From assembly GCA_020137815.1 (NCBI GenBank), contig CM035351.1, positions 6,014,001-6,078,000 of the forward strand: a stretch of 64,000 bases of DNA, given 5' to 3'. Under the pieces are notes generated by a model, which was not told where the DNA came from, did not search any database, and saw only the letters and a program-made list of their open reading frames with translations. Each line of letters starts with the position of its first letter. Positions within the stretch are counted from its first letter, which is position 1. Shown here in pieces: positions 21,181 through 54,484 of the stretch. This DNA is from Hormiphora californensis (taxonomy: Eukaryota; Animalia; Ctenophora). A program made the translations under genes and the position numbers.

Positions 21181-21639
21181 ATGTCACTGCTCCCTCTGAT
21201 TGGTGCTATCAGAGGGTGTTCGAGGGCTATTTCAGCATTTACCCAACCCGGCAAGCTCCTTCAACCCCACCGATCAGTGCATGTAACCCACGAACCGAAG
21301 AAGAAGTGTGATCACTGCTACTACGCTGTCGACCATAGAACTGACACTAAGTTTGTGCTCTGCTCTGCAAATCCTGCCCACAAGCAAGCCAAAAGGAATA
21401 ATGTGGAATTCCGACTAAAGCAAAGGTTCTACTACATGGGGCTACGAGATCTTGGTGCCACTCCAAAGATGATTAACGCACGGGTAAACGATGTTGGGTA
21501 TGCTAACTTTACAAAGCAACGTAAACGCGTGGGTAACCGTGGAATCTTGAGAAATAATCATGTGTTCGATGGATTAAAACAATTCGCCGAGGAAACTCGT
21601 AGCTTACAACCAAAACCTGGACAATTACCTTCAAAGTGA
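21181..21639 (+). CDS. MRPL36: Mitochondrial ribosomal protein bL36m with C-terminal extension
   Basis: Presequence-like N-terminus followed by the L36 zinc ribbon PKKKCDHCYYAVDHRTDTKFVLCSANPAHKQ (CxxC...C...H). Single exon. Confidence 0.75.
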   Translation: MSLLPLIGAIRGCSRAISAFTQPGKLLQPHRSVHVTHEPKKKCDHCYYAVDHRTDTKFVLCSANPAHKQAKRNNVEFRLKQRFYYMGLRDLGATPKMINARVNDVGYANFTKQRKRVGNRGILRNNHVFDGLKQFAEETRSLQPKPGQLPSK

Positions 21640-21762
21640 ACCAAGTTGATAATATGTTCTGTTTATTGTCTGAGTTTACTGTAAAAACCCCATTGGTATA
21701 TTTCTTGTTTTCATCCCAAAATCCACTGCAACTATGTTTTTTAACCTACTCCTCTATGTAGT

Positions 21763-24330
21763 ATGATGTCGACAGCTAAAGAGCCAAGCGAAGAGGTAAA
21801 GGCCGCAGAGAAAATCAAATCATTCAAAGAGTTGAAGCTAGATGATAGGCTGGGGAAGGCAGTTGCCAAGATTGGATGGGCTAAGCCTACATTAGTGCAG
21901 GCAGCAACCATTCCAACTGCTTTGGAAGGAAGAGATATCATAGCAAAATCTAAAACAGGATCAGGTATACACTTTACATTCGTATTTGTAGATTTTGGGA
22001 GTATACCAATTTGGTGGTAGAATACCAGTCCTGTTAGATATTTGTCATGCTCTGATAGTTTGATCCAACATTCGGTTTATCGTTTATTAGGTAAAACAGG
22101 CGCTTATGCATTGAGCGCCCTACAAATTCTGCTCCGTGAAACTCCTCCGAAGCCCCTCTCTGTGGTAGTCTTGGTTCCTACTAAAACACTAGCCAGTCAA
22201 ACCAGTAAAGTGTTCCAATCTCTAACAAAGTGGACCAGTAATGTTACAACGGTAAGTTCAACTTCCCTTGCGTAGATGAGACTATGTAAATAGTCACACT
22301 CGCGTTTACACGTAACGTAAAGGCTCATAGTAACACCGTAGTGGTAAAATGTAACGTATATTGGCCAGATAAAACCACACCGATGTCGTACTCTGTAATA
22401 TCCCCAGAGAACTGATCTCTACCCTTTTATTGTTCAGGCACCCCTTTATTATTCAATCGCCCCTTTATTATTCAGCCACCACCCCTTGACTGAATCTTCC
22501 CTTCCAGGTGAACCTCTCTCAGAATGCCAACTCAGACACCACCCGTGCTATGCTGCTCAGGGATCCCCATGTCATAGTTGGAACCCCAGCGGGTCTACTA
22601 ACTGCAGTAAAGGAAGCCTCCCTATCCCTCTCCTCCCTCTCTCTACTAGTTCTGGATGAGGCTGATCTCCAGTTCTCGTATGGTTACTCCGCTGATATAA
22701 CAGAACTGAGACAACACTTCCCCGCAGTAAAACAGACTATCCTAATGTCAGCAACCATGTCCGAGGATGTCAAGTCTCTCTGCCTTAGTTTGAATGACCC
22801 GGTTACACTAGATCTCGCTGCCACATCACTTCAGGTATTGGGTTTTTAGGGATTTTAGGGATGACAAACTTGGCCTATTACCCTTTTTATCGGAGGTTAC
22901 AAGTGACATTCTGCCTTCTGGACATGTCAACATTACCATTTCTCAGAGTTTCTAACCCCTCACTCTCATCTTATTACCATTACCATTTCTCAGAGTTTCT
23001 AACACCTCACTCTCATCTTCTCAGTGTTTCTAACACCTCACTCTCATCTTCTCAGTGTTTCTAACACCTCACTCATCTTATTACCATTACCATTTCTCAG
23101 AGTTTCTAACCCCTCACTCTTCTCAGAAAAACAAGCTAGAGCAGTACCTGATCAAATGTCCTGTTGAGGATAAATTCTTGCTCCTTTACACGCTACTGAA
23201 GCTCAATCTAGTGAGAGGGAAAACTATCATATTTGTATCAGAAACGAACAGGTATTGTTGTGTTTTACCAGTTATACACTTTTCATGTCATCTTCCAGAC
23301 TCAGCATTCACAAACAAACAAACTACATTTTTCGTCACTCGTCTATATATTTTCAGGTGTTATCGAGTTAAATTGTTTCTGGAGCAGTTCTCTATCAAAT
23401 GCTGTGTGTTGAATTTTGAGTTGCCAGCCAACTGTGTGGTCCATGCTATAGATCAGTTTAATAGAGGTGAGAAAATGAACAGACTAAATTAAGTTAAAGT
23501 AAACAATGGCAAGATAATATACAGTTGGACCTCGATTTACCGGGATTCACGGGGGAAAGGGTTTTGAATTGGGGTTCGAGAGTATGGGAACTATGTCTGG
23601 TTCTGAGAATTTAAGTGCAGCTATCCATACACTAATCATCACTATTTTGTCAGGAATATTCGATATCATTGTTACAACAGACGACCAGCAGAATAAGGAC
23701 ACCAATGTAGCACGTGGAATTGATTTCCAGGCGGTTGATAACATAATTAACTTTGACTTCCCTGCCACACCTCAACAATACGTCCATCGGGTGGGCCGAA
23801 CAGCCCGTGCCTTCAACTCCGGTTCTTCCCTGACCTTCCTAACACCTGACCTAAAAGCCCAATTTGAGGCGCTCAGGGACCACCTATCCAAATCGGCCGA
23901 GCAGGAAGATGAGTTCAAACCTTACACTTTCAACATGAAATCTGTGGAGGGGTTCCGGTACCGATGTAGGGATGCAAACAGGGCGGTGACAAAGTTTTCA
24001 GTCCAGGAAGCGAGGAGAAAGGAAATCAAGGAGGAAATGATGAATTCCGAGAAATTGAAGAACTTTTTCTGTGAAAATCCCCAGGATCTGCAGGTGCTGA
24101 GGCATGACAAGGTTGCCAAGCCCAGGGAGGTCAAGGAACATCTGGCTACTGTACCTGAATACCTTATTCCAGCGGGACTGAAGGGGAATCTCAAACAGCA
24201 GTCATCACACAAGAAGAAAGCACTTGATCTGAGCAGAAAGAGGATCGGTAACTACAAGGGACAGGCATCCAAGAGGAAAAATGACCCCCTGAAATCGTTC
24301 AAGTACAAAAAGGCGAAGGAAGATAATTGA
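21763..24330 (+). CDS. DDX56: DEAD-box RNA helicase DDX56/Dbp9 (6 exons)
   Basis: [50 protein letters not shown], plus the DDX56-specific FRYRCRDA and LQVLRHDK. Confidence 0.95.
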
Positions 24331-52587: not shown

Positions 52588-52957
52588 TGAGGACAGATAT
52601 AATTTGTTGCTGTGAGACACTGAAATAGTGGTCAAAGTAGTGTTTTTACTATATTGTTCCGGGCCCCGGTATTAGATTAATGTCTGATCGCACTGTCCAT
52701 ATTGAAGTGAGAATAATATTTTCTTGCTGCTCCTGCTGTAATAAATAACCCGCTCTCTATATATTTTCATATAACCAGAGAAACTGAGACAAAGTGAATG
52801 ACATTTTAATATACAAATCATATTTAATCAATTTTATTTAATGTTCATTATTCAGTTGTTTCTTTACTCCTGTGACATTGATAAGGCGATCGAATAAACT
52901 CGCTAAATCCAATTTGAAAGCAGGCATAAACAGTTTTCTGACCAAAGCTTTAGCACC

Positions 52958-54484
52958 ATGGCAGATGAAACATCTCCTGGGGAGGAGAACTCTGCAGCCA
53001 GAGCAGCCCACAGACTCTCCACAGCTAAGGTAACGATCGATATTGCCTTGTTTGAACAAAACAAGTTCGATCTACCAGAACTATGATAACTTCTACACCC
53101 CCTCCCTAGCTCGCGAAAAGGGGGTCGAGGTAATAATATTGTAAAGGAGGGTCAGAACATAACACTCCCTCCTACATCTCAGTATATCGAGGCACAGCGG
53201 GCCATGTCAGAAATGCAGTCTGAGTGTCCCAGTAGTGGTGGAGGTGGTGGTGAAATTCCCCCTGAGTGTCCCATGCACCAGAGCAACAACGACCAGAAGT
53301 TGGATGGGGACAACATGATGCCTCCCCCTAACCAGAGGCCTGCATTTGATCAGCCCTTCCCTCTTGACCAAGGCAGGGAAACAAGTTCCATACCTCGTCA
53401 TGGCACGGGTTAGTTTGGCAATGACCCAACTCCTTATCCTTTATTTTATCTACTGCTCTTTTCTACTTCCCCCATCTTCTATATCCCCACCCCCTCCAAC
53501 CCTCTCCCACTTCATCCCACTCAAACCCCCACTCAGGTAAGAACTGGGTGTACCCGAGTGAACAAATGTTCTGGAATGCTATGACCCGGAAAGGGTGGAA
53601 CTGGAGAGATGAAAAGGAGGATGTCACCCCTCAATCCATCTCAGAGATCATCAAAATTCATAATTTTAACAACGAGAAGGCCTGGCATGAGGTATAGTGT
53701 TGTCTTACAAGAACTGTTTAATTATTTTTGGCAGTGAAATTGCAGTGAAATTGCAGTGAAGTGTATTTCAGATAGCCCAAAATCTTTTAACTGAATCAAT
53801 TTACATCATTCATCCCTTTGTCATGTACATCGTCGATACCCAGCACACCCTACCCAACATGGTTGTGAAACCTGACAGATATCACCTTCTATATTCCGAT
53901 CCATGGCTGCCATCACTTTATCCTTCCCCCATTTCAGATTCTCCTGTGGGAGAAATTCTACGACGAGGAGTGTGGGGATCCTCAGTTGGTGAAATTCCAA
54001 GGTCGACCCAAGGATATGTCACCAAAAGCACGCTTTCTGACAACCTTCAAATCGTGGCCAAAACCCTTTGACAGACACGACTGGATTGTTAACCGGTGTG
54101 GCACTGAGGTAAAACTTCCTCTTTCATTTCTTTCAGGATACTTTAAACTTTTCAAAAATTTATTGCTTCGTTTGAGGTTTCGTTCGCCTTTTCCAACACT
54201 ATTCCTCCGTCCTCGAATACCCCCTCTTATCCTATCCCCTCCTATATCAGGTGCGATACATCCTTGATTACTATGATGTCGGTTTTGAGAACAGTGACGA
54301 CTCTGTTCTGATCGATGTTCGACCTGCCATTGATTCATTCTCTGCAATGAAAGATCGATTCAAGGTGTTCATGTTACGAAATGCCCCCACAGTTGCCACA
54401 TTCCTATTTGAATACCCCATGATACCAAAAGGAATGGACCCTGTCGAGGTTTCACGAACTGAGGGAAACGATAACCATTCGTAG
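52958..54484 (+). CDS. HCCS: Holocytochrome c synthase (5 exons)
   Basis: CP heme motifs (ECPS, ECPM), [72 protein letters not shown]. Confidence 0.97.

Follow-up and report, generated by a model that had tools for sequence, protein, structure and literature searches.

Nematodes have a dedicated spliced leader, SL2, and the median distance between genes in the SL2 operons of C. elegans is 99-105 bp. In the tunicates Oikopleura dioica and Ciona intestinalis (PMC7986045, PMC6389100), operons are made up of co-oriented, unrelated genes with an unpaired AG for each, and one leader is placed on operon and non-operon genes alike. Spacers are short, with cut-offs of 60-84 bp and, in Ciona, often a mere 0-1 bp; the operons of the latter contain up to six or seven genes. 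The operons of the chaetognath P. gotoi (PMC12460157) are biased towards housekeeping genes and are defined by gaps below 250 bp together with a leader on one or more of the genes; they lack an operon-specific leader, and the longest comprises nine genes. Among non-bilaterians, the RFC140-flp operon of Hydra (PMC3273482) has a spacer with a T-rich stretch, a pyrimidine tract and an AG acceptor. In the ctenophore Hormiphora, spliced-leader (SL) trans-splicing has been described, and 56% or more of the long reads carry the leader (PMC8527503). The words 'operon' and 'polycistron' are absent from the main text of that paper, and no ctenophore operon was found in the literature.

The window analysed here, 64,000 nt of Hormiphora californensis (GCA_020137815.1, CM035351.1:6,014,001-6,078,000), contains at 21181..54484 a cluster that a sequence-only reading had proposed as a 13-gene operon, possibly in a lineage whose operons are little characterised. 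This description of the lineage holds good, the host being a ctenophore. An operon resolved by SL trans-splicing is also the best reading of the cluster, with a probability of about 0.6. As in the tunicates, the genes are co-oriented and unrelated, each is preceded by an unpaired AG, and the leader involved is the one placed on other genes too. The tunicate spacers are shorter: stop-to-ATG distances here are 87-545 nt over 11 genes with transposons excluded, and co-transcription, unlike that in tunicates, is presumed. The Hydra operon, also from a non-bilaterian animal, comprises only two genes and was proven by reporter tests. The features of the locus are collected in Table 1.

Table 1. Genes, spacer elements and candidate control regions of the cluster, in window coordinates
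Feature	Position	Strand	Remarks
CpG-rich stretch, candidate main promoter region	20100..20391	.	8.2 CpG/100 nt, 15 CGCG/GCGC
Gene 1, MRPL36-like	21181..21639	+	One exon, 152 aa; acceptor-like AG 21177-21178
Gene 2, DEAD-box helicase (DDX56-like)	21763..24330	+	6 exons, 533 aa
Gene 3, translin (TSN)	24563..25723	+	4 exons, 224 aa; introns 2, 3 spliced in RNA contigs
Gene 4, PHD-finger protein (PHF14-like)	25927..29397	+	One exon, 1156 aa
SRFBP1 trans-splice acceptor AG	29530..29531	+	134 nt past PHF14 stop, 1 nt before ATG; X3 contig
Gene 5, SRFBP1/BUD22	29533..30450	+	One exon, 305 aa
Gene 6, FAM185A-like (DUF4097)	30538..31515	+	One exon, 325 aa; 87 nt past SRFBP1 stop
Small inverted-repeat element	31602..31777	.	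FAM185A-HDAC8 spacer
Gene 7, HDAC8-like	32018..34662	+	7 exons, 364 aa; intron 2 spliced in RNA
Gene 8, BLOC1S5/Muted	34828..35713	+	3 exons, 155 aa; intron 2 spliced in RNA
Gene 9 (putative PEX3)	35921..37166	+	Open frame, 3 exons, 313 aa; name from the sequence-only reading
Inverted-repeat transposon, TTAA ends	37204..38521	.	Gene 9-U2AF1 spacer
Gene 10, U2AF small subunit (U2AF1)	38777..39886	+	4 exons, 219 aa; introns 1, 2 spliced in RNA
Gene 11, CHTF18	40432..48480	+	15 exons, 865 aa
CpG-rich stretch, candidate second promoter	48560..48990	.	CHTF18-gene 12 spacer; 7.0 CpG/100 nt, 6 CGCG/GCGC
Second copy of TTAA-ended transposon family	49199..50967	.	Ends ~15 nt before gene 12 acceptor
Gene 12 (putative MIF4GD-like)	50985..52587	+	Open frame, 5 exons, 272 aa; name from the sequence-only reading
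Gene 13, cytochrome c heme lyase (HCCS)	52958..54484	+	5 exons, 285 aa

The run of 13 consecutive plus-strand genes was borne out: rebuilt from their coordinates, all the models are open from ATG to stop, and GT-AG borders are present at all 43 introns (median 156 nt, shortest 85 nt), with RNA contigs supporting 6 of the 19 introns within 20600-40400. The names fared less evenly. Pfam backs 11 of the 13 at family level, that of MRPL36 weakly (E 0.001), and PDB sequence searches back CHTF18, the U2AF small subunit and an HDAC8-like enzyme; single-exon queries for PEX3 and the MIF4GD-like gene found no match in Pfam, Atlas and PDB searches. For gene 2, the searches bear out the DEAD-box helicase class and not the finer identity as DDX56. 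All 13 genes face the same way, with zero head-to-head pairs, and the nearest recognised genes flanking the cluster are on the minus strand on both sides. Orientation alone is weak evidence, since about 1.7 same-strand runs of 13 or more genes would be expected by chance among 14,265 randomly oriented genes.

The previously listed stop-to-ATG gaps (123, 232, 203, 135, 87, 502, 165, 207, 1610, 545, 2504 and 370 nt) were reproduced exactly, as was the presence of inverted-repeat elements in the gaps of 502, 1610 and 2504 nt. By computation and direct reading these shrink to 326, 292-298 and 735-741 nt respectively, the ranges reflecting the choice of element ends. Seven of the 12 gaps are below 250 nt, and nine are below 330 nt without transposons. 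The chaetognath rule of less than 250 bp (PMC12460157) therefore takes in 7 of 12 gaps, including all of those among genes 1-6, and applied strictly it yields runs of six and three genes against the chaetognath maximum of nine; with a relaxed gap limit and transposons set aside, the run here is 10-11 genes. The bias towards housekeeping genes is common to both.

What is unusual about the cluster is the combination of seven gaps below 250 nt with a YAG ahead of every one of the 13 starts. This YAG lies no more than 12 nt before the ATG, and is found at only 27-43% of control ATGs (47/119 intronic, 99/231 coding and 21/78 spacer ATGs in a 15-nt test; P about 1e-5). The pyrimidine share ahead of it is 0.66, to be compared with 0.72 for true acceptors (n = 43) and 0.47 for YAGs from intron interiors (n = 268). 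Donor-like sites number one in the seven short spacers against 4.8 expected, and the sole example, at 30491, would on direct reading give an intron of 32-44 nt, under the 85-nt minimum seen here. All five longer spacers hold a donor-like site, scoring 6.7-8.4 bits, which counts against the operon reading.

Trans-splicing of the leader, as proposed for the cluster, was seen at the inner gene SRFBP1. An RNA contig (X3 contig 18, depth 19.1) has 20 letters foreign to the genome, ACTTTAAACAAATTAATTTG, and then follows 29530-29663 with zero differences. Followed by AG, ACTTTAAACAAATTAATTTG is identical to the published spliced leader of Hormiphora over its final 22 nt, which end in TTTGAG (PMC8527503). 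In contrast to the nematode SL2, the leader on this inner gene matches the general one of Hormiphora across the 22 nt seen, the 5' half lying beyond them. This evidence comprises one contig from one oligo-dT RNA run (X3) of one plankton study, and covers one of the 12 downstream starts. The MRPL36 mRNA probably bears the leader as well: its contig (X2 contig 9) shows 16 letters that do not match and then follows 21172-21436 with one difference, the pattern that 23 nt of the Hormiphora leader would yield in a hand comparison of counts rather than letters. The U2AF1 contig is ambiguous from its letter counts, with 90 letters aligned 5' of the first joint against the 72 expected from a leader attached at 38776, and it may be leaderless and colinear. 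Among the RNA contigs listed over 20600-40400, the range compared, the starts of seven other genes were not reached, and the starts of genes 11-13 fall outside this range; uncovered stretches were not counted as evidence. Run X1 gave exon-only pieces and no loose leader. Run X5 was considered as the same species and rejected, since it matches only repeats, the leader-like copy described below and conserved patches at 85-95%. We infer that the remaining cluster genes also receive the leader.

Linkage in relatives was checked for one gene pair, SRFBP1-FAM185A. In one relative, homologues of SRFBP1 (41% identity) and FAM185A (50%) each lie on a contig of 28,328 bp, likely one and the same. In Mnemiopsis leidyi the relatives of the two genes, G016509 and G017494, are on different contigs (of 14,606,143 and 15,610,916, respectively), and may be paralogs. 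The FAM185A contig of another relative, which may be DNA or RNA, has about 200 nt upstream with neither leader nor SRFBP1 tail. The search for MRPL36 homologues returned two proteins only, on short contigs without synteny information, and a metagenome scan returned one locus with no neighbour gene. Homologue contigs of 2-6 kb might be fused transcripts and were not used as evidence.

According to the operon reading, transcription would begin at about 20.1-21.1 kb, and one long precursor would likely span the greater part of the cluster. Each upstream mRNA would receive its 3' end within the short spacer that follows, and the spliceosome would attach the leader, with its cap, at the unpaired AG situated 0-15 nt before the next ATG, yielding single mRNAs; the spacer transposons would ride in 3' UTRs or in discarded spacer RNA. 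The leader in itself does not amount to proof of an operon, since that of tunicates serves operons and single genes, and because 56% or more of the long reads from Hormiphora bear it we can only infer that the cluster genes are transcribed together.

The same facts, that ctenophore mRNAs in general often bear the leader (PMC8527503) and that tunicates also put their single leader on monocistronic genes, would suit a compact cluster of housekeeping genes that are each transcribed separately, in which a small promoter overlaps the 3' end of the preceding gene and the leader replaces a short outron. The chance expectation for same-strand runs of 13, the separation of SRFBP1 and FAM185A in Mnemiopsis and the possible lack of leader on the U2AF1 contig are also in its favour. 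It is nevertheless unlikely. The seven short spacers measure 72-230 nt from stop to acceptor and must also house a 3' UTR; RNA contigs extend 49-55 nt beyond three stop codons, and the spacers resemble 3' UTRs in being rich in T and poor in CpG, unlike the upstream flank. The shared orientation of all 13 genes, with no head-to-head pair, argues in the same direction. In four spacers contigs stop 117, 109, 150 and 107 nt short of the next acceptor, their strand and true ends not being given, and this range of 107-150 nt is near the C. elegans SL2 distances mentioned above. No contig joining two genes is among those listed over 20600-40400, where strand and ends are again lacking. Canonical poly(A) hexamers are found in one of the seven short spacers and, by eye, none directly follows CHTF18 or HCCS; with hexamers so scarce, nothing was concluded from them.

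The best supported part of the proposed SL-resolved operon is the tight core of genes 1-6, followed by genes 7-9. The unit probably reaches CHTF18, giving 11 genes, with genes 12-13 likely forming a second unit whose promoter would lie at about 48.6-49.0 kb. The earlier proposal of one or two units is accordingly narrowed in favour of two or more, since the transposon-free CHTF18-gene 12 spacer differs in CpG content from the other 11, which with elements excluded have 0-3.4 CpG/100 nt and zero CGCG/GCGC. The CpG-rich stretch in that spacer resembles the one upstream of the cluster, which faces away from a minus-strand phosphatase gene (DSPc match), although both windows were selected with the sequence already in view, and promoters of the CpG-rich kind are not an established feature of Hormiphora. 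Rfam at gathering score gave two tRNAs only; matches in 48.4-49.3 kb and 19.5-21.2 kb were sub-threshold and attributable to chance, so that neither stretch holds a known ncRNA or Rfam SL RNA. A single operon of 13 genes and 33 kb with one promoter, the maximal form of the sequence-only reading, is improbable: the acceptor-like signature common to all 13 starts and the minus-strand neighbours on either side would agree with it, but the CHTF18-gene 12 spacer, still about 735 nt when free of transposons, contains the flank-like CpG-rich stretch. The 11+2 division is likelier than one 13-gene unit, and is itself put forward tentatively. The chance that 11 to 13 unrelated housekeeping genes, spanning 27-33 kb, share a single promoter falls somewhat short of even odds.

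It is extremely improbable that the leader is instead encoded in the genome as one first exon, joined to every gene by cis-splicing. Hormiphora does have 718 genomic leader copies, and the paper that counts them notes that such an appearance could be an artefact of mapping (PMC8527503). The only leader-like stretch of the window is found some 330 nt ahead of gene 1, but on the minus strand, so that within the window the leader does not come from an upstream cis exon; the copy has 2/22 mismatches to the RNA leader and is followed by CT, not GT. On the plus strand of the window, a search allowing 3 mismatches over 19 nt found no copy. The possibility that the minus-strand copy is a gene for SL RNA was rejected too, there being no GT donor after the exon and the copy sitting between inverted repeats.

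If true, the SL-resolved operon would be the first described in Ctenophora. The leader goes onto most ctenophore mRNAs, and its purpose is unsettled; a real operon would add an early-branching phylum to those that pair leader splicing with operons. Data of the long-read, ATAC and H3K4me3 types, which bear directly on the claim, exist for Hormiphora and Mnemiopsis (PMC8527503, PMC12221973). Annotation of ctenophore promoters and gene models would change, inner genes having no promoter of their own. A true unit of 11-13 genes would exceed the nine of chaetognaths and the seven of Ciona, would tolerate kilobase transposons in its spacers, and would suggest that polycistronic transcription is widespread, though unreported, in ctenophores.

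The sequence-only reading had described 13 consecutive plus-strand genes at 21181..54484, numbered here 1-13 (MRPL36, DDX56, TSN, PHF14, SRFBP1, FAM185A, HDAC8, BLOC1S5, PEX3, U2AF1, CHTF18, MIF4GD-like and HCCS), and this description withstands reconstruction of the models from their coordinates: all 13 run from ATG to stop with no internal stop codon, and their introns are GT-AG in 43 of 43 cases. Its 12 stop-to-ATG gaps are exactly reproduced and, for the three long gaps carrying inverted-repeat elements, direct reading of the element ends gives sizes without the elements of 326, 292-298 and 735-741 nt, in agreement with its estimates. 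Pfam supports 11/13 of its gene names at family level, and PDB searches back CHTF18, the U2AF small subunit and an HDAC8-like enzyme; PEX3 and MIF4GD-like, queried as single exons, received no confirmation. The nearest recognised flanking genes, a dual-specificity phosphatase upstream and an adenosylhomocysteinase downstream, both lie on the minus strand. The MRPL36-like protein (21181-21639; 152 aa) has about 80 residues beyond its L36-like motif, and two relatives of it were found (94% and 66%).

For 14,265 genes (the count in PMC8527503) in random orientation, same-strand runs of at least 13 are expected about 1.7 times, so that the signal lies in spacing and acceptors rather than in orientation. 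A YAG is positioned 0-12 nt 5' of the ATG in all 13 genes, compared with 27-43% of control ATGs, these being tested over 15 nt. The tract preceding these start-proximal YAGs is similar to that at the 43 true acceptors (pyrimidine share 0.66 and 0.72, respectively), the share at 268 intron-interior YAGs being 0.47. The seven spacers shorter than 250 nt contain a single donor-like site where 4.8 are expected, and direct reading shows that splicing from it would yield an intron much shorter than the 85-nt minimum. Each of the five longer spacers has a donor-like site, unsurprisingly for their size given 5.8 such sites per kb. AATAAA and ATTAAA are absent from six of the seven short spacers (21640-35920), whose 3'-end signals may be degenerate or coupled to trans-splicing.

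Repeat-related features in and beyond the cluster
Feature	Coordinates	Position
TTAA-flanked inverted-repeat transposon, copy 1	37204-38521	cluster spacer, ~40 nt past a stop codon
TTAA-flanked inverted-repeat transposon, copy 2, same family	49199-50967	cluster spacer, ~15 nt before an acceptor
Inverted pair of tRNA-Gly(TCC) genes	40687-41226	within CHTF18 intron 1
Inverted-repeat element (2.5 kb), internal 21-nt satellite	42102-44629	fills CHTF18 intron 4
Exon-like pieces between related inverted ends	55500-60500, + strand	

One of the paired tRNA genes is lengthened by 41-nt tandem copies of a tRNA end. The region of exon-like pieces resembles a decayed transposon that carried introns; of its ORFs, one was compared with Pfam and gave no match.

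Of five RNA runs found, four were compared with 20600-40400, a region holding 10 of the 13 gene starts, those of genes 1-10; the data are contigs, either from mixed plankton or of uncertain type, and two of the runs, X2 and X3, come from a single study. Contig 18 of X3 (154 nt, depth 19.1) begins with 20 loose letters, ACTTTAAACAAATTAATTTG, and continues through 29530-29663 with zero differences. Together with the AG at 29530-29531, these letters make up the final 22 nt of the Hormiphora spliced leader as printed in PMC8527503. This AG is the SRFBP1 acceptor, 1 nt 5' of the ATG and 134 nt 3' of the PHF14 stop. At MRPL36, X2 contig 9 has 16 unmatched letters followed by 21172-21436 with one difference, exactly the pattern that 23 nt of leader joined at 21178 would give, as we infer from a hand comparison. 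The third start reached, that of U2AF1, is ambiguous: in X2 contig 14, 90 letters align ahead of the first joint instead of the 72 predicted for a leader at 38776, which may count against a leader. The non-genomic leader sought at each upstream AG is present at SRFBP1 and consistent with MRPL36, the contigs listed reaching three of the 10 starts in this region and none of the other seven. None of them joins two genes; four stop 107-150 nt short of the next acceptor, and they reveal neither strand nor transcript ends.

The cluster is real and tightly packed, with leader splicing directly evidenced at one inner gene, SRFBP1, and it is probably an operon, still a candidate one. The most likely mechanism (probability roughly 0.6) is that a promoter upstream of MRPL36 would yield one precursor RNA, which would be cut at every spacer through 3'-end formation and leader trans-splicing. 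Tunicates, chaetognaths and Hydra cut precursors in this way. The main rival is a densely packed set of leader-bearing genes, each with its own overlapping promoter, and appears rather unlikely; it remains in play since at least 56% of Hormiphora long reads carry the leader (PMC8527503) and single-leader animals also add theirs to monocistronic genes (PMC7986045). Internal promoters inside true operons, as described for Oikopleura in PMC6389100, are compatible with the precursor reading.

Once elements are excluded, CGCG/GCGC is absent from 11 of the 12 spacers, where CpG runs at 0-3.4 per 100 nt. The twelfth includes a stretch (48560-48990) with 7.0 CpG per 100 nt and six CGCG/GCGC, values near those of the flank 5' of gene 1 (8.2 and 15, respectively). 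From this we infer, and claim no more than that, a division into genes 1-11 and a second unit of genes 12-13, since the windows were picked after inspection, further CpG-rich patches occur elsewhere in the window and what is described for Mnemiopsis is a CpG-containing motif that marks part of its promoters (PMC12221973). A single unit spanning all 13 genes is very doubtful. CpG-rich 54620-55000, directly 3' of HCCS with no recognised gene beyond, and 16470-16720 resemble candidate promoters.

Linkage was compared for one pair, SRFBP1-FAM185A, through contig sizes and accession numbers. Bolinopsis microptera (45% identity) and Mnemiopsis leidyi supply the closest named relatives of both, and these together with the Hormiphora leader identify the source as a ctenophore, by the leader probably a pleurobrachiid. 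Exact matches to four proteins of the window were absent from the sequence collection searched. The contigs holding the two genes in one divergent relative each measure 28,328 bp and are likely one and the same, and in Mnemiopsis the two are on separate contigs; paralogy is possible for SRFBP1, since its tree leaves the Bolinopsis and Mnemiopsis proteins ungrouped. Hormiphora-Mnemiopsis microsynteny is reported as four-gene blocks at most. The only metagenome locus found has an acceptor-like CAG in the ~200 nt 5' of its FAM185A relative, and neither leader nor SRFBP1 tail there.

PMC7986045 (2021) states that ctenophore operons had not been reported, and the main text of PMC8527503 lacks 'operon' and 'polycistron'. 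PMC12460157 (2025), in part, gives nine genes as the longest operon and mentions ctenophore trans-splicing and not operons there. No ctenophore operon appears in the accessible text of PMC3273482, PMC10282587, PMC4824033 or PMC6005172, nor in the result lists and abstract openings of the mostly open-access literature searched. What this case adds to an already known mechanism is its phylum and its possible length.

It is improbable that a nearby leader exon is spliced in cis, because the sole leader-like DNA in the window (~20811-20850, between 38-nt inverted repeats) is on the minus strand and has no GT donor. This near full-length copy, with its imperfect flanking repeats, lies within 20716-20890, ~330 nt 5' of the cluster, a segment that may be a small mobile element bearing the leader. 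Leader copies by the hundreds are reported from ctenophore genomes (PMC8527503), and a leader-carrying mobile element, if true, could bear on them.
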